Below are positions 5,677 to 46,500 of a stretch of DNA of 64,000 bases, in pieces. The translations under genes were made by a program, and so were the position numbers. This stretch comes from Sphagnum compactum (Eukaryota). The DNA is taken from the NCBI GenBank assembly GCA_965153455.1, contig OZ234493.1, forward strand, positions 34,400,213-34,464,212. Direction: 5' to 3'. A model generated the notes under the pieces. It had not been told where the DNA came from. It ran no database searches and saw only the letters and a program-made list of their open reading frames with translations. Numbering within the stretch: the stretch's first letter is position 1; the number at the start of each line of letters is the position of its first letter.

Positions 5677-8600
5677 TCAGGCCAAATAGCGGTACAGTTT
5701 TCTGTCTACACTGTCCCTTTCCAGGAATTCCCTCTCAATTAAGGATTCAATTCGTTTCTTGATCACAGCAGGATTAGGAAGAAAGCGAGCTTGTAGTTGC
5801 TTTGTCACCTCACTGATGATATTATTGTGATCCAAAAGCCGTCTGGCCTTCATAATTCTGACAATAGCAGCCTCAATCTGTGGCTTCCTATCTTCCTCCA
5901 CCTTCTGGCGTGTTTCCTGTTTCTCAGGTTCACTCTCCTTCTGTGCAACGACAGTACTAATCTTCACCTTGTAGAACTTGCTCGAAAACTTGTCATTAAC
6001 CAAAAACACATCATCCTCACTGATGTCCTTGCTCATAGGTTCCTTACGCAAGACATTTTTACCCTTCACGCATGCCAAAGACTGCAGACTTCTCTGTAGA
6101 TCTGATGCAGGTATGTCTGTTGCCTGCTCAATTTCTCTGTACATCAGGCGATCTGCTTTGTTGAACAGACAAAGAATGCACATTTGGTATGTGGACACAT
6201 TGAGCTCATGTTTATTTCCATTTCCAAATGTGGCCTTCAAGTCTGCCGTACCCATGTTGGTTTGCCATGTTAATCGCCGACCTGTGTGAGTAGATAAGTA
6301 ATACAGCTTGAACTTGTCACACATGAAAATAATCTCTGTTGGCAGGTTGCACCTTGCACCAGACTGTGTTGGCCATGATCCTGTTGTGAGCACTTGCACT
6401 GCAAGAGTTGGCCCTTCATTGGTTTCACTTCCTGCCAGTGTTGCATTGAAACCCTGCATTGTATCTCGTGAAGTCTTCATATCTGTGAACATACCTTCCA
6501 GCTTTGATGTGAACTGATAGCCACATTCAGTCTTCAGCTTCACAATGAGACTGCGCTCTGCATCATCTGACACAGTTCTGCCTGACAACAGGCGTTTTGC
6601 CAGGTGCTGCTTATAGTACTTCTCAAAGACATCCTTCTCTTGCAAGTAGCGAAACAGCATCATCACCTTATCAAGCACTGACTCCACATCCTCTTCACTC
6701 ACCCCTTTCAAACCCTTCCTTAGCTTGTCATCCACAAAGAGTGAGATGAACTCTGGTGACCTAACATTGAGATTGATGAAATACTCAAATGATGAATTCA
6801 GTGCATTTTGGAATGTCTTGTCATTGCCAAATGAAAGCTGGATAACCTTGTCATACTTGTCCTTCTCGTCAAGCAACCGTTGCACAAACTCAACAGGATC
6901 TTTCAATCTCTCTGGGTCCAGAACAAGCTGCCTTCCAGTGTCCCGCAAATGAGCTGTCATGAGGTCACGGATTGTCTGCAGGCCTGTTGACACCCGGCGG
7001 AACATATTGTACATGCGTCCCAAATCATCATACTTGTCATCAATGAGCATGGACACCAACCCTGAATTCTCCATCTCAACCAAAAGCTTCATGCGGTTCC
7101 CAATGACCTCCTTCTCAACTACAGCGGTAATTTTTGGCTCACTTTTTGCATCTAAATAGTGAGTTACCCTGTCTATCTCCTCATTGAGCCTTTTCTCTGC
7201 CTTCCTCAAATAATCAGCACAGTCACATGTTTCCACGAACTGTTGCGACTCCACCCTGTAGAAGTCTGATGCAGCATCCAGAAATGGTCTCTCAAAGTCT
7301 TCCTGATAAACTGTTGGACCCAGATCAACCAGCATCTTTGTAATGTTCCGCATTAGGCCTCTATTGATCACCTCCCCTGTTCGCTCTCTGTGCACAAGGT
7401 CTAGTAGCGTATGCAGCAATCGATCCCTTATCCTTGGAGACCTCACAATGTTATCTCGCCACAAATTGAGGCCAAGTTCATGGACAGGGGTCTTATTGAA
7501 ATTGTTCACATATGTTCTGTCCATGTACATGAGAATATCTCGGATCATCTGCAGCGACTTATTGTGCTCACGCCACTTGGAGTTGAGCTCCTCCAGAAAC
7601 AGTCCTCCTTGGGCAGCCTCTACAGTCCTTGCAATCTCACGCATGTGCTGTGTCATTGTGTTCACAAGCCCTGAATACAGCTTCTCACCATACTTGTGGA
7701 GCACCATGTTGTAGGCATTCCTGCATAACAAACTGATATTCTTAGACCAAAAATGGCAGACTTCTATGCTGCAAGTTACCCTTCATTCTATACAATGTCT
7801 ACACAAGAAAGTAGCACATTATTCATTCATGCCTCTTTAGGCAAATACATGTGTTTACCAACCAAACAGACAAGGCACACATCTGATGGCCAAAAAGGGC
7901 TAATAATTCCCACAATCAAATAAGAATTACAACATACAAAATCCCTCATTCAAGCAAAAATTATCATGCAGTACCCTTGTTGTGACACTTGCCTCCAAAA
8001 AAACCAAGCCAAACCTTTGCTTGTCACATTGAATTTTGCAAACTAGCTTATTCTTCAGTAATCAAAAGCTCTACTGGTAATATCACAATTCCCGCTGGCA
8101 TATATTCAAAACTCACAGAACCAAACCCTATGAAAAAAAGCTATGAGCAGCCAATTATTCTTCCACATAAGAGCACGTCTGCCACCACAAGCACACATTA
8201 CTGCAGAAGAATTGCGAAAATACTAACACAATAATAAGTGAACCTAACAATCTTTCAGCACTAGATTTGCAAACCCTAGATGGGCAATACTGAGACCAGA
8301 TAAAGTCACCTACAACCAAAAGGCCTTACAGCAGTTCCTACAATGGTGCCAACAAGTCCATGAAAGAGATGAGCAGGGATTCAAATCCAACAGGTCATCA
8401 TCAACAACAAAGTCGCCAGCAAAATTTGGCCATTCCAGAAAAAATGACAAGATAAAAACAAGAACATCCAAACAGGTTAGGTCCAGTCCAAAAGAGCAGC
8501 AGCTGAAAAACGGGTAGCGCAGGCAAGAAGGAACAACGGCGTTGATTCCGCCAATATACACACCTAATTGCTAAACAAAAAAGAAGCCTATCTCTCTCTC

Positions 8601-15865: not shown

Positions 15866-17363
15866 TTATGAGGATTGATTGTCTTCTGGAGGACCATCAC
15901 CTTGTTGCTCTTCCATTTGTTTCTTGAGTTGTTCCAGGGGTCCCCAAACATGTTGTCGTGTGCTTTTGATCGTCTTTCCCGCACATTTGCAAACAGTTTT
16001 GTTCATGTTGACTCCACAATCGATGCAAAGACCTTTGCATGAAGGGTCACAGAGTGATGATGATGGAATCTCAAGGTGAATTGTGTCCCGCAGGTACTTC
16101 GAGATGTCCACCTCTTTGGCATCAAGAGGGAAATGGAGCTTGTCATCCAAGTCAAGGTCTAAGACTGCTTCTCCTTCATCATCCTCATCTCCTTCAAATC
16201 CATATTTGCTGCTTGTGTCTGCCCCAAGCACCACTCCCACTGTTTGTTGTGGGGGCTCACTCACTGGATTTGTTGTCAAAGTAAGGTTGAAGGTTGCAAA
16301 CACTCGCTCAGCTACTGGTGCTAGACACCTTGCAAACACAGTATTTATTCCAACACCCACATTATCAAACACAGTTTCACATTTCCCAGGTTGAGAGATT
16401 CACGTTCTTCTGTGTGAAAGAAAAGGAGGAAAATCTCCACCCACCAACCCTAAACCCTAAAGTTGAACTTACACATATGAGAGAGTTTACTGGATATGCT
16501 AATGTTTGCAAAGAATTTCCACCATCAGGACTTACCGATTGCAAACCAAGCCAAAAGCAGTTCTTATGATTCCATCAAGTTGAATATCTCGCCCGTCTCT
16601 AGAAGCATCAATGGAGATCTGCACAGGAGTGATGAGCTCCTCTGTTTCCGATTCCAACTCATCGAGCAGCCCCATTGACAAGGCCAAGGCCCTCGATAGT
16701 TCTGATGAAAGGATTGAGAGCCCAAGTCTTTCCAATGAAGTGACATGCTCAACCCGTGCCTGCACTGCACTTCGCTTGAAGATTATGGCACCTTCCCATG
16801 GTGTGTCTGCTTCTTCCTCATCTTTTTCCGTCACACCTAACATTAGGAAAAAAATTGTCTCAGATGACATCACACACAACTCATCATGCACAGTACCCTA
16901 AAAGATATTGAAATTCCTAGAGGCAGCAGATGGGGCTAAGCATCTGATCAATTTGTGCTTGCAATTATGATGATGATGGCATGTAGCACATGGACTTACG
17001 AACTGGAAGAGCATTGCATAAGTGGAGAGTTGCCAACTGTGTGCTGCATTTCTTGAATGGTGGAATTGATAGCCTGGAATGCAAGTGCCTTGATGATTGC
17101 TCTTCTTCCCGTACTCCAGCCAAACTGGTATGAAACCTGTGGTGTCTTCTGGTGTCAATCACACTCCAATTGACTCTAAGAAATGGTGATGATGATGCTC
17201 CTGTATTATCTCCTGTCTTGAAGAGAGCAACATCACTGCGCAAGGATATGCTGCACAGATTCTTACTTGAACACCCAACTGAAAATTTTGTTCCTGCCAT
17301 ATGTAGCAGCAACAAGCTCTCAGGGGTCCAAGTTGCAGCAGGAGCACAAGAAGAGATTGCCAT
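15866..17363 (-). CDS. YCED1: Plastid large rRNA subunit accumulation protein YceD/DUF177 homologue 1; exons 17363-17000 (least certain), 16836-16536, 16328-15866
   Basis: Conserved blocks: TPWEGAIIFKR...VEHVTSLERLGL, TPVQISID...LDGIIRT...CNR|CLAP, DKLHFP..KEVDISKYLRDTIHLEI...CDPSCKGLCIDCGVNMNKTVCKC...WGPLEQLKKQM. The Ser/Ala-rich N-terminus is transit-peptide-like, and splice phases are consistent. Confidence 0.9.
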
Positions 17364-17704
17364 TTCCTTCCAAGGTTTTTTCTTTCTTCACCCCTGCACC
17401 CAGGAACAAAACAAAATAAATCTCCTCTTGGATTGTGTTGTTGTCATAGTCTTCTGTAGTAGCTACTGGTGATGGGACATTTGAATGGTGGGTGCTTGCA
17501 TGCGACATTGCAAGCACTGAAGAAAAACCTTAGACATTTGAGGCCTCCATTTGCAAAATCCTGTTCTCTCTTTTCCTCTCAAAAAAGACAAGATGCAAAC
17601 CAGGTTTCTTTGATGATTGTCCAAAGCAGAGGGGAAGAATTTCTTGCTTACCCTAATTGTGATAGAGTATTCACTCGCATGGAGAATAAAACACTGGGTG
17701 GGTT

Positions 17705-40450: not shown

Positions 40451-41856
40451 ACCTTAATCTTAAAAGCTTAATCTGTCAAAATCATTAAATTTTATGGTGT
40501 TTCTTTTTTGTGCCAGTCTCTTGTACTGGTATTGGATACTTTTAAAAACGTTCTTACCAGTCCTGGTATTAGGTCCAACACTGACTTTTGGCTTGTATGA
40601 GGCAGGTATATATACCTGATACTGAGATTGATATAAAACTGGTAGAAAACTGGTATTCTCTCAACTACCTTTCCAGTTCATATTGGTATAAGGTTGGTAT
40701 TTGCCTTCACAGCAGACTGGTTAGGGTCCTTGCTACCAAATGTTGATAGTTGAAACCAGTGTTGACAGGTTCTTGGATTTTAAGTTTTATAAAATCAGAG
40801 GTTTAGGTTTAAGTTCTTGTGACTTGGAGCTGAACAACCTCCTTTCTACAAGGAAACAGCATTAGGATCAGACCTTGGAACTAGCCTTTTGCAATAGCTG
40901 AAACCCAATCAGATTCATGAATAATTTTTTTTTTCAAAACAGGATCAGGTTGTTTAAGAAAGAAAGATGAACTTTATTGAAAAGTTAGCAAACTATTAAG
41001 AGGCTGAATTTTGTGGGCAGATAATCTGGTCTAATTGACGATAAAACTTGGTACCTTCAACAAATCCAAGTTTTTAATTTTATTGTAAAAATTTCATTCC
41101 TATACAATTTTAAACCTTGGATGATAGTGTGTACTGTGTACATGGAACCAGATCCTATTCTTAAAATAGTCTTGGAGGTTCTTGAATTTGAAAAATAATG
41201 CCAAAGCCAAAATCATATGGGTTTTGAAAATTGAAGATACCGGGCTCAAACATGGACTCAAAAGAAGTGAGAAAAACAACTTTAAGTATCAAAACCAGGA
41301 TCAGCTCTAAGTTCTTTGGAAAGCCAAGAACTGGACAACACAGGCTGATACCAAGATAATTCTGGGGGCAGCATTCATCATCCATTCCTTGCTACCCATT
41401 CATTCGATAAATTTTGTGCCAAGTTTTGAACACTGGGAATATTTTAGCCTCATGAATCGTGCAGGCTTTACACACAAAGAGCGCAAGAATTTCAACTCTG
41501 CAGAACTCCTGCAAGTGAACTACAAAAAAAGCCCACAAGCTAAGGTCAAGAAATTACACTTAATCAACTCATTCATGGGTGAATGCATAGGAATGTGGAT
41601 CCAAATGAGACAAAGAAAAACATCCTCATAAGTCCCATCTCCTTTGTATTTTTTCAACTAGTCAGCTAACTAGCTAGCTGGTTGTATAGGCGTTCTATAC
41701 ACTGATTCTAGGGACCTAAACTAATTCTTTCTTGTTATGTAAATTTTTTTTGTATGTACAAGCTTCTGCCCTGGCTCAAGGCTTCATCAAAAGCCAGCTA
41801 ATTTTGCAGCAGCTTGGGAGAGGAGAATATTCTGATGAGAGATTTTCTTAATGCTA

Positions 41857-43570
41857 CTAATTGCTCCTTGGAGGATGGTTTTGTGGGTCCTTATAGTCGC
41901 CAAAGAAATCATTGGAATGAGTATGAGGAAATGCAGCTGCTGGTGCGGAATAATATTTGGATTGATCAGCTCCTGCAGGTATAAGCTTTCGCCTTGCAAT
42001 CCACCTCCGTTGTTGTCGTCGGCGAAGTCTCATTTGAAGCTGATGGGTTGCAACAGCAGCAGCAGCAGCATCTGGAGACATGACCAAAGTTCTGATTTCA
42101 TGATCTGTTGATCTAACCGTCAGTAGTTGCATTTGGTTCCACCACCTGATCTCCCAAAGGAACTGCAAAACTCGATGCATTGACGCTGCAGCAGCAGCTG
42201 TAATAATCTCCTGCAATGTCATTCCCTTTTCATTGCCACCAGCTGCTGCTGCAACCGGATGGTGAAGAACCTCCTGCTGCTGCTGCTGCTGGGAGCGACG
42301 ATGCTGCAGCAGTAGTAGCAGCTCAGTCACATATTGCCGCCACATGCTCCCCCACGTTCGATGTCTGTTGGAGCTGGGCTGATCATCATGTATTACTGCT
42401 GCATTTCTGACACTAATATTTGTGTGCAGCAGGCGTCGGCCTCCTGAGCCTCCTGAGCGTTGTTGTTGCGAATCATGATCTATTATAACTACTGGTGATC
42501 CATGATCTTCAGCTTCCAGCAGCTGCGCCTGCACTGCTAGTTTCATGGAATTCTTTTCAGTTGAGTCTTGTTTTCTGTCTATCTGCGGCCAAGACCCACA
42601 ACAAAATCCACCGACATTTGGTTAGAGATAATCCAGGTATCTCTTCTGGGTGGTTCCTAGAGGAGCCCAGCCTGCATCGACCCAATTTTGAGAGCTCTCA
42701 TATCATGCGGGTGCTAAAATCTCAGTAGATTATGAACCCTGAGCCTTCGAATCTTTTAGTTCGCATTCCAGTTATTTGAAGATTGCACCGTCCATTCATG
42801 ACCAACAGGTGTGGCTGCAAGTCAACATCTTGTGTTTCAAGTTCTGGAATCAAAACACAGGATATATAAAAACTGTGGTTCGAATTCTTTATATATACCT
42901 CCGATTTTGTTGTTGGATTTGATGCATCTGGGTGATCTTGCACTGCCGCCTTTTGGGTGGTGATGAGTGCTGCAGCCTGCTGAATATACTCCTTTGTAAC
43001 GTCGATGACGACATTGCTGTCATGCTTTTCTCCTGAAACATCATGAGAACAAATCAAGACCTTGCAGACATCAGCAGCAGAATAACAAAGCTCTTCCAAA
43101 GTTGTTGTAACTAGTTTGGGTCTGATTATAACGCAAGATCGATCTTCACCTGGGTTTCACAACATTCAAGACTGCGATCTTATACAATGATCCTGATGAA
43201 CACGAATCCATGAGCTTGCAGAAAACAAAGTCCAAACTTATAGCTATGCATTCTTTTCTCAAGCTGGTATATATAATTCACGAACTCGAATGTGTGAAGG
43301 TGTTCTAGACCACTTCTAGTCTCCATCTATATGCGGAAACAGCTACTACGAGCAAGCAAAATTGACAATATGTGCACCGGGCGACCCGGGATTACCGGGA
43401 GGTAGATAGCTGGCGGAAGTGCAACGGAGTTGTTGGAGCAAGACGATCGACAGAGATACAGTGATCATGGCGCACCAGTATAATATTGCAGTGCAGGCTG
43501 GTGATGGAGCTGTACACCACAAGCTGCTGCTTCCTACTGGAGCTATTCTCTTCCCCACAGAGAGTACCAT
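41857..43570 (-). CDS. RGF/GOLVEN/CLEL-family sulfated peptide hormone precursor, about 344 aa (310 aa from the second ATG at 43468); exons 43570-43396, 43032-42899, 42582-41857
   Basis: The last 13 residues before the stop are DYKDPQNHPPRSN (41898-41860), matching the RGF consensus DY-x-x-P-x-x-HPP-x-x-N (Arabidopsis RGF1 DYSNPGHHPPRHN). Exon 1 has a signal-peptide-like MITVSLSIVLLQQLRCTSA. The pro-region is low-complexity with RRLL and RRKL sites, and both GT..AG introns are in phase. Confidence 0.85.
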
Positions 43571-46500
43571 TCTCACAGCTGCTTTTGCATAGCTGCTACT
43601 GCAAGTTTGATTCTCCAGCTGCTGCCTCTTGTTCTCTTCGTCGAGCTCCGTCTCGCTAATTACTTCTGCAGTTCATGGAATCGATATTCTGTAGCACGTT
43701 CTGGATCTGGTCATAGACGAGCATGAAAGTAGTATCTAACGCAGATTGACGGATGCACTAGGAAAAGCACTAAATGGGTTCTAAAATATAAATAAACTGG
43801 CCAGAGACAGCAGCTAATTCTAATACAACCTCATCACTAGCAACAAGGACCTCTCAGGAATAATTATTAGAGTAGTTAGAATCGGAGAAAAAAACACTCA
43901 CAAATGAACACATGAACTTGCAACACTAGAGATCTTCAGTACATGAGTAATTGCAAAATTGGGAATCAGTCTAAACAACTAGACTAGCTGATGATTAGAA
44001 CTTCAATGGTGCACAAGCAGCTTATAGAAGGATTGACGTTGTCTAGATGTCATGTGTTATATGATCTTGAGCTGCTGCTTGATCAGCCACCTGCTTGTTT
44101 GAACACTACGTTACTACACTGGCGTCTGGAGGACGTCGAGGAAACGTTGCAGATTGAAACTGGTGATCAAGACTACTTCATGAGCAAGACTCCAAAGAAA
44201 TACAAGGAAGAAGAAAAGATATATAGCAGCTCTAGCTAGCTAGCTAGCACGGTGCTTCTAGCTAGATGAGTAGCGGGCGTACGTGTCATGTACTGGCGCA
44301 TTCATGAGGTGCAGAATTAGAGAAAGTCATGAGGGGGGGGGGGGACAACAAGAGATGCAACAGATGGTTTTCTGATCTGCAGCTGCAGTATGCACGCCTG
44401 CATACTACTACTACTACAACAGCTTCTGATGATCAGTACTGTTACATAATATGTATGTATGTATGTATGTCTGTATATGCGACAATACTAGAAACCAAGA
44501 CTGCAAAACAGCAGCTAGCCCCATCGATCAGGCAGGCAGGCAGGCAACCAACACTAGTAACTCAATTGATCATGAGCTCTATCTTGATGATCACCTGCTT
44601 CTAGCTAGCTGTAGATTATACAAGTTCCTGCAAGCTTATTTATGTCTAGGCTGCGGTTTGGCCTAGTCTCCTCCTCCTCCTCCTCCTCCTCAGGCTGAGC
44701 AGCAGCTAGCTGCACTCATACAGTGCTCATGATCGACGATGTTTGCAATCAATGTTTCTTTCTTTTTTCTTCTCTCTCTCACTTTGCGAAAGTTTGCTTG
44801 CAGCGTGGTGACAAAAAGAAAATCCAGTGCCAAGGATCCAAAGGGGTTTTTTCTTTATGGGGAAAAATGGGTCAAAGTCACCAAACTTTGACAATGAGTT
44901 CTTGGAGGTTTGCCAAAACTAAGATAAATTCTTAAATTGTTTTTGACTTTCCTCTCTGACTTCTTGCCAAATCCAGTGCTTAGGATATACAAAGGGTATT
45001 TTTTTGGGAAACAAAATGGTGCCAAAGTAACCAAATCTAAACGATGAGTTCCTGGACGTTGCCAAAACAACTTAGCAGGATTCGTAATTCTTTTTACTTT
45101 CCTCTCTGCTGACCTCTAGCCAAATTTGGCATTTGGCTCATTCCTCTTGAGGAGGATCGCCAATCCACCTACTCCACAAAATCCAAGGAAAAAAAAAACC
45201 CCTTGGATTGATCTACTACTACCAGCTGGTACTGTAGCTGAATAAAACTCAACCTTTGTAGCTGCTTCTGCATCATCAGCATCCTCTAGCTAGCTAAGAG
45301 GCGGACTTTTTCTTTGTTTCTAAATTAAAATTTTAGCTGTGATCATATTCTATCTCTTTCTTTCTTTGGTTGGTTTTTTGCCTCCCCCAGCTGGGCATGA
45401 GAAAAAACAAGCTAGGCTTCGGGATCTGCACCAAAGTTTGGTGTGAGTGGTGACACTGGGGTCATCTGCAAGCAGGCTGCCATATGTCTTGGGAGCAGCA
45501 GCTGCAGCCGCGCCATATCTGCTTCTGACATGCACCATGTTATACCATTTGTATACCAATTTTCTTTAGTACTAAATTCTCCCCCAGTGCACATTCATCC
45601 TTAAATTGGGTCTTCTTTTCCCATTTCGAGAGTTGTTGCCTAGTCTCTGCCCTCTTTGGGATAAATTTCGCAATAAAATTTTCAAAAACAAACCGACCCA
45701 TCACTCACTCAAAAGCAACGACATCAAGACTTGTACTTCCTTCTTCTTCATAATGGACCCCACAAGTTGTGCATGAATCTTCAAAAGTCTAGTCTAGAAA
45801 TCTAGATTGCCCCCCTTGAATGCAATTATTCCTGGGAAAATTAGAAATTAACAAGAATTGCTTGCCACAAATGCCTTACAAGCACGGTTTTTTTTTCTTC
45901 ACAAGAAGAATTAGCTAAATTTGGCTACAGATTGCAGAGAGTCAAGTAATAACATTTCTAAATCCTGCTATATTTTTTGGGGAGGTGCTGGAGCCAGTAG
46001 TTGTGTTTCAAATTTCAGATGTTGCATCATTGACTAGCTCCACCCCAAGAGATATTTAGCATTAAATTGTGACAGCCTTTTTCGAAAAAACAAATCTGTC
46101 TTCACAGTAAAAGAAACTAGTTTAAAAACTGCTAAACCAAAGTAAAAGTGGAGATCCAAATGTGGTGAAATTTCTTTTCTAAAAACAAAACAAATACATT
46201 CTCGAAACTTGACAATTTTTTCAGAAAAAACCAGAATATTTCAACAGACTATTTATTTGCGGAACCTATTGTCTAAATATGGTGATTCCGGAGTTTTTTG
46301 TCCTTCAAAATCTGGTGACTTTGCTGCATCTTTTTCACAAAATTCCTTTGTATCAATGGCACTGGATTATTTTTTTTGGTCATCAATGGCAAAACTTCAG
46401 CCCAAAGAAAACCAACTCCTCTGCTATTTATTAGCATTAAAACAGAGACTACCTAATAAAAAATCATCACTGCAAGATCAAAAGTGAGCCATTTTACTTT

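Follow-up and report, generated by a model that had tools for sequence, protein, structure and literature searches.

Results

Gene structure and transcription

The window, meaning the whole 64,000-nucleotide stretch of the Sphagnum compactum genome analyzed here, carries on its minus strand an open frame (42621-41857) that terminates in DYKDPQNHPPRSN and a stop codon. Joining the exon segments 43570-43396, 43032-42899 and 42582-41857 yields 1035 nt encoding 344 aa with a single stop. The locus comprises the following features:

43571..44184, minus strand: 5' leader; its length is 614 nt or more on a spliced RNA contig, and another contig, from X1, carries it to 44659
43573..43590, minus strand: micro-uORF of five codons, MQKQL plus TGA, starting at the last upstream ATG and ending 2 nt ahead of the main ATG
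43396..43570, minus strand: coding part of exon 1, 175 nt, with Met1 (the same start in orthologs) and the signal segment
43033..43395, minus strand: intron 1, 363 nt, GT..AG, phase 1 as in the modelled paralogs, absent from RNA contigs
42899..43032, minus strand: exon 2, 134 nt, variable pro-region
42583..42898, minus strand: intron 2, 316 nt, GT..AG, phase 0, absent from RNA contigs
41857..42582, minus strand: coding part of exon 3, 726 nt, with low-complexity pro-region, processing motifs, mature peptide and stop
42427..42438, minus strand: RRLL, candidate S1P/SBT6.1-type site, confined to this ortholog group
41983..41994, minus strand: RRKL, candidate S1P/SBT6.1-type site, 28 residues ahead of the peptide
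41860..41898, minus strand: predicted mature 13-aa group H RGF peptide DYKDPQNHPPRSN, with TAG at 41859-41857
41253..41856, minus strand: 3' UTR, reached by RNA contigs as far as 41609 (X6/X9) or 41253 (X1, gapped)

The 13-mer, RRLL (42438-42427) and RRKL (41994-41983) thus lie on the minus strand exactly where the initial annotation had placed them. Elsewhere in the window are a minus-strand frame of 701 aa (5677-7782), presumably cullin-like, and exons of what we take to be a DUF177/YceD-like gene (15866-17387, minus strand); no link between either of these and the RGF gene was seen.

A search of RNA runs returned 23 runs from 14 studies that overlap the stretch in part, each sharing less than half of its words, and the assembled contigs come from related Sphagnum plants (mostly 95-99% alike), not from the sequenced individual. 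In three of the four runs compared (X1, X6 and X9), contigs lack precisely the sequence of both predicted introns; since their depths are identical, X6 and X9 are treated as a single data set. Read on the plus strand, the skipped segments are bounded by CT..AC, which means that the RNA derives from the minus strand. One X6/X9 contig of 1930 nt covers 44184 to 41609 with both introns removed and links the signal exon with the final exon, which is the transcript that had been named in advance as a test of the gene. Both introns and their exon joints therefore stand as proposed, being GT..AG, leaving an open 344-aa frame and missing from the RNA contigs. X1 additionally contains intron-bearing contigs of low depth (approximately 7, against 61-150), which we interpret as pre-mRNA or DNA, while the raw reads of X24 include only 2 reads at the locus. 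Other donors for intron 1 (43425 and 43377) would keep the frame but do not occur in the RNA contigs, and a sigma-70 promoter scan was set aside as inapplicable to a plant gene. Within the 3' UTR, the X1 contig omits 96 nt (41453-41550), the ends of which are not GT-AG, and has 313 differing letters at 41355-41360; we regard these differences (window 41355-41550) as indels of the related plant.

The mature peptide and its family

DYKDPQNHPPRSN has D1, Y2, P5, H8, P9, P10 and N13, as in the definition of group H in the RGF/GLV/CLEL family, and its last three residues, R-S-N, conform to the moss RGF-like C-terminus R/K-G/S-N. The peptide sits at the extreme C-terminus of an open precursor, with TAG directly after N13, and in all six frames of the window a loose DY..N-stop pattern matches only this site and one junk site with an internal stop. 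Assignment to RGF group R was rejected, as that group needs R/K at positions 7-8, where this peptide has N7-H8; CIF and PSY sulfated peptides were rejected because they are longer after DY (18 aa in PSY1), whereas here 13 residues lead to the stop. A Pfam scan of the three exons found neither RGF nor another family (one chance match, E 0.12), and the last 25 residues matched nothing in a sequence search of the PDB.

Across the genome, the pattern D1-Y2-P5-H8-P9-P10, which misses variants lacking any one of these residues, gave 12 matches against 4 in a reversed control. Seven of these matches end in N-stop after 13 residues (L001, L002, L003, which is the present gene, L004, L009, L010 and L012), two read 19 residues and three look like chance. 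The genome therefore holds at least seven RGF paralogs, this gene included, and for all seven a counterpart could be picked out by eye among the available supplement rows of PMC8329595. Over the last exons of the seven, 7 of the 13 peptide positions are invariant and only one other column is. Among the four closest paralogs, with 29-42% amino-acid identity, the figures are 9 of 13 peptide columns and 21 of 214 ungapped columns elsewhere; raised conservation of the 13-mer among relatives, also set beforehand as a test, is thus clearly present.

The two 19-residue matches, L005 (G000:C3:14259136, minus strand) and L008 (G000:C6:13530587, plus strand), are paralogous genes with terminal DY peptides of the form DY-x2-P-x2-HPP-x-EPPSL-x-DP-stop, preceded by an RF-S motif, and each has a signal-peptide-like frame 1.0-1.2 kb upstream. 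Short-term searches did not find these peptides in the available supplement portions of PMC8329595 and PMC8462819. By their sequence they could be extended RGF-like, CIF-like or PSY-like, and are possibly unreported sulfopeptides.

Orthologs in public records

A protein search with exon 3 recovered one cluster among 8000 scored candidates. At least 15 of its 48 members were inspected, and the 13-mer is the same in 15 of the 15 compared. The named members come from five Sphagnum species and, among the members listed, all are unnamed or hypothetical. CAK9880858.1 (S. jensenii), KAH9553551.1 (S. magellanicum), CAM6025678.1 (S. balticum), CAK9233552.1 and CAM6074649.1 have the same gene model (340-344 aa, 93-96% identical) and carry such labels, not RGF, which bears out the earlier remark that the gene is easily annotated as hypothetical. 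Altogether, seven full-length orthologs share 93-96% identity with the window protein, all of them with open frames.

The family itself is not new in bryophytes, as the initial annotation had stated. Furumizu and Sawa (2021) list in Data Sheet 2 a full-length S. palustre ortholog, RCBT-2030149 (PMC8329595), which shares with the present gene the start Met, both splice joints, RRLL, RRKL and the length (about 345 aa, judged from cell size); apart from the last residues of the row, the two differ by scattered substitutions only. The partial S. lescurii (GOWD-2064845) and S. recurvum (UHLI-2089780) rows of the same source have a 13-mer identical to ours. According to its legend, Fig. S2 of that study aligns such precursors and marks the mature peptide and potential processing sites, and the study reports that early-diverging mosses have RGFs and that Bryophytina have lost them (PMC8329595). 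Because the S. palustre ortholog stands in that supplement at full length, the gene is not new: it belongs to a known family as an ordinary member and adds nothing to the 2021 catalogue.

Precursor length, pro-region and processing

The three closest paralogs were modelled at 283, 315 and 320 aa, and their intron phases agree with those found here, splice sites having been picked by score and by match to published rows (L015 is the least certain). As counted from the available published rows, the Takakia precursor has 197 aa and three full-length liverwort rows have 211-216 aa (PMC8329595). The present precursor had been described as unusually long: it is indeed the longest of the paralogs modelled, and its length accompanies homopolymer runs, but a long precursor is common to the clade, and from the 283-320 aa of the closest paralogs we conclude that length is a lineage trait.

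The pro-region spans residues 54-331 (278 aa) and is rich in Ala (11.9%), Gln (10.1%), Leu (7.9%) and Arg (7.9%). RRKL and RRLL both fit the RxxL/RxLx motif of SBT6.1-type sites and are thus candidate cleavage sites; RRKL recurs in five of the seven genome paralogs and in the Takakia and Andreaea rows. At the N-terminus, Met1 in a strong context is followed by a basic n-region, Trp-Cys and a hydrophobic stretch covering roughly residues 28-45 (Kyte-Doolittle mean over 11 residues peaking at 2.4), with putative cleavage after Ala53. A hydrophobic segment and a plausible cleavage site are seen, together with an n-region of approximately 27 residues after Met1, longer than is usual in signal peptides. 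Met35 (43468) was rejected as the main start, as it is not common to the paralogs. By the family definition of PMC8329595, a signal peptide is not required of an RGF.

Receptors and modification enzymes

The genome has 101 LRRNT_2 matches, of which 20 with long open frames were examined. One locus has RxGG within an LRR together with RxR, motifs said to mark RGIs (PMC8708909, PMC8462819), and continues to more LRRs, a transmembrane segment and a kinase. Its RxGG region matches two paralogs at 77-79% identity, both also with RxGG and RxR, and the next LRRs reach at most 48%. The putative receptor genes are:

L068/L069, C8 at about 316-320 kb; L070, C1:17058475; L071, C7:18926904: RGI-like LRR receptor kinases with RxGG and RxR

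In these receptors the motif reads R-G-G-G-N, which is why two RGI motif patterns run over the genome found nothing relevant: they gave 3 and 12 matches, and none of those translated (L024 and 8 of the 12) is an LRR. Three chance matches (L037, L039 and L044) are presumably fructokinase-like (PfkB) exons. In a PDB search with one receptor, RGI3 (5HYX) was the sole top match as one continuous 411-residue stretch; by summed repeat scores GSO1 reached 584 bits against 574 for RGI3, and with a 100-aa piece RGI3 ranked third. The ectodomain frame of L068 is broken just past RxR by an apparent intron with tandem repeats. The genome search for RGI-clade receptors suggested earlier thus points to three RGI-like genes, as judged from motifs and similarity.

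TPST has been reported in P. patens and M. polymorpha (PMC8462819). Genome searches for it with Pfam profiles, a weak approach for a many-exon gene, gave one intronless match for PF13469 and none above the cut-off for PF03567. The former, a Sulfotransfer_3 match on a small contig (L021, G000:C136:5409-6065), may be bacterial contamination of the assembly.

A micro-uORF before the start codon

The 5' leader contains 9 upstream ATGs as far as 44184 and 17 as far as 44659. The last of them opens the micro-uORF, an element kept in four of the seven RGF paralogs and missing from the other three: L013 and L017 have MQKL-stop with a 2-nt gap to the main ATG, and L015 has MQKQL-stop with a 7-nt gap. 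The four leaders otherwise barely align, and the sole 10-mer common to all four 1200-nt leaders sits in the micro-uORF; when the leaders were resampled by a third-order Markov model, any shared 10-mer appeared in 12 of 2000 trials. Fourfold sites between those paralogs are only 49-62% identical. The differences among paralogs preserve the uORF (a whole-codon indel, CTG/TTG, TGA/TAA), the change in run X1 at 43576 gives another Leu codon and leaves it intact, and a published S. recurvum transcript alters only the gap between uORF and ATG (PMC8329595).

Two other readings of the element are disfavored. As a conserved in-frame N-terminal extension it would need a common frame, yet the frame differs in L015 and changes in that frame are non-synonymous; as a splice donor it corresponds to no joint in the RNA contigs, and the X1 variant at 43576 removes the GT. 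An in-frame upstream ATG in L017 offers another reading, and because synonymous positions in it are also fixed, the element may work at the RNA or DNA level. The uORF pattern occurs at 20 genome places against 1 in a reversed control, a count not used as evidence; 12 of the 20 were examined, and the 8 non-RGF ones lead to no signal-peptide-like frame.

Discussion

We identified at this locus a Sphagnum group H RGF/GLV/CLEL prepropeptide gene, and we put the probability of this explanation as a whole, including the pro-region as a disposable spacer lengthened by Ala/Gln/His runs, at about 0.88. The initial annotation had called it an intact, spliced ligand gene of a probably rootless plant, and the open 344-aa frame, the introns skipped in RNA and the 13-mer all agree with that view. 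By analogy with Arabidopsis, the precursor would enter the ER via its N-terminal hydrophobic segment and undergo a first cut by S1P/SBT6.1 in the Golgi, with the conserved RRKL as the most likely site; Tyr2 would be sulfated by TPST and one proline hydroxylated, and an aspartate-dependent subtilase would trim ahead of Asp1 before secretion. An RGI-type LRR receptor kinase would then bind the peptide, with cell proliferation or growth control in the gametophyte as the likely outcome. Two-step processing, by SBT6.1 and then SBT3.8, is reported for CLEL6 (PMC13082318), and bioactive RGF forms are known only from Arabidopsis, according to PMC8329595. The suggested role in gametophyte growth draws on the overexpression of MpRGF, which affects growth, giving dwarfed Marchantia, and produces RGF-like root effects in Arabidopsis (PMC8329595). 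Our literature search, by title or abstract start, found nothing on RGF function in Sphagnum, and none of the moss papers found addresses the part in meristem or branching behaviour that the initial annotation had suggested.

The long pro-region had also been suggested as a possible source of additional peptides besides the RGF, which would make the precursor a polyprotein. When the pro-region was shuffled 10000 times, two RRxL motifs did arise in only 81 cases and at least one in 1235; the whole pro-region is 93-96% identical across Sphagnum orthologs, and paralogs also have a helix-like segment containing Trp and an H-R..W patch. However, the identity among orthologs mirrors recent species divergence and falls to 29-42% among paralogs, each precursor has a single DY, and RRLL is absent from the paralogs. 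AlphaFold, given exon 3 with seven paralog rows, returned isolated helices and no compact domain (pTM 0.27), which is weak evidence given the shallow alignment, and an ESM Atlas query with an ortholog, itself a weak test, gave no usable match. With one DY per precursor, 21 of 214 columns invariant and RRLL unshared, we find no support for extra peptides and consider a polyprotein improbable. More improbable still is a degenerate or non-functional duplicate: seven paralogs permit redundancy and insertions of low complexity are present, but the frame is open in seven of seven full-length orthologs, the 13-mer does not vary among the 15 cluster members compared, the transcripts are spliced and receptors are kept in the genome, so that this reading is largely refuted.

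A third alternative concerns the same gene and only the way in which its product is released. The precursor could be a type II signal-anchored membrane protein whose luminal part is freed by S1P at RRLL/RRKL, not by signal peptidase. The long, basic 27-residue n-region ahead of the hydrophobic segment fits such a topology; moreover, the MV start and Trp-Cys are common to four paralogs and the Takakia and Andreaea rows, and the automatic UniRef name of one ortholog is 'membrane-associated protein'. Against this, the small-residue context after the hydrophobic core (T-S-A then S) is typical of cleavage, and its SA is invariant in four paralogs. We therefore regard anchoring as unlikely, and it would yield the same end peptide as the prepropeptide with a cleaved signal that we prefer.

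The micro-uORF is the only new lead at this gene. We tentatively suggest, at somewhat less than even odds and from sequence comparison, that the four-gene clade may be held under translational control by a conserved M-Q-K-[Q]-L-stop element that a signal could switch. Since the uORF ends 2-7 nt before the ATG, too close for efficient reinitiation, hormone output would depend on leaky scanning. This proposal should be interpreted with caution, as the paralogs have a common ancestry, the site was chosen post hoc and the element is short. The available main text of PMC8329595 makes no mention of a uORF, upstream or UTR element, and a literature search of titles and listings turned up no work on the control of an RGF gene by a uORF. 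If the element works, it would provide a simple, testable case of translational dose control of a peptide hormone.

Marchantia MpRGF (Mp6g09180) and the other liverwort RGFs share with the present gene a C-terminal group H 13-mer, RRxL-type sites and, putatively, a signal peptide, but in the rows available liverworts have a single near-invariant gene of approximately 200-216 aa ending in SSN or ESN, in contrast to at least seven Sphagnum paralogs ending in R/K-G/S-N. Arabidopsis RGF1/GLV11/CLEL8 shares D1, Y2, P5, H8, P9, P10 and N13 with the Sphagnum peptide, and its receptor RGI3 (PDB 5HYX) has the RxGG and RxR also found in the Sphagnum candidates. The Arabidopsis precursors, in contrast, are reported at approximately 79-182 aa (PMC8708909) against 344 aa here, position 12 is H or N instead of S, and the peptide acts in sporophytic roots. 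The model moss Physcomitrium, by the accounts at hand, has lost both RGF ligands and RGI receptors, whereas no fewer than seven ligands and three RGI-like receptors persist in Sphagnum; peat moss is therefore well suited to asking what role this signaling has in a leafy moss gametophyte.
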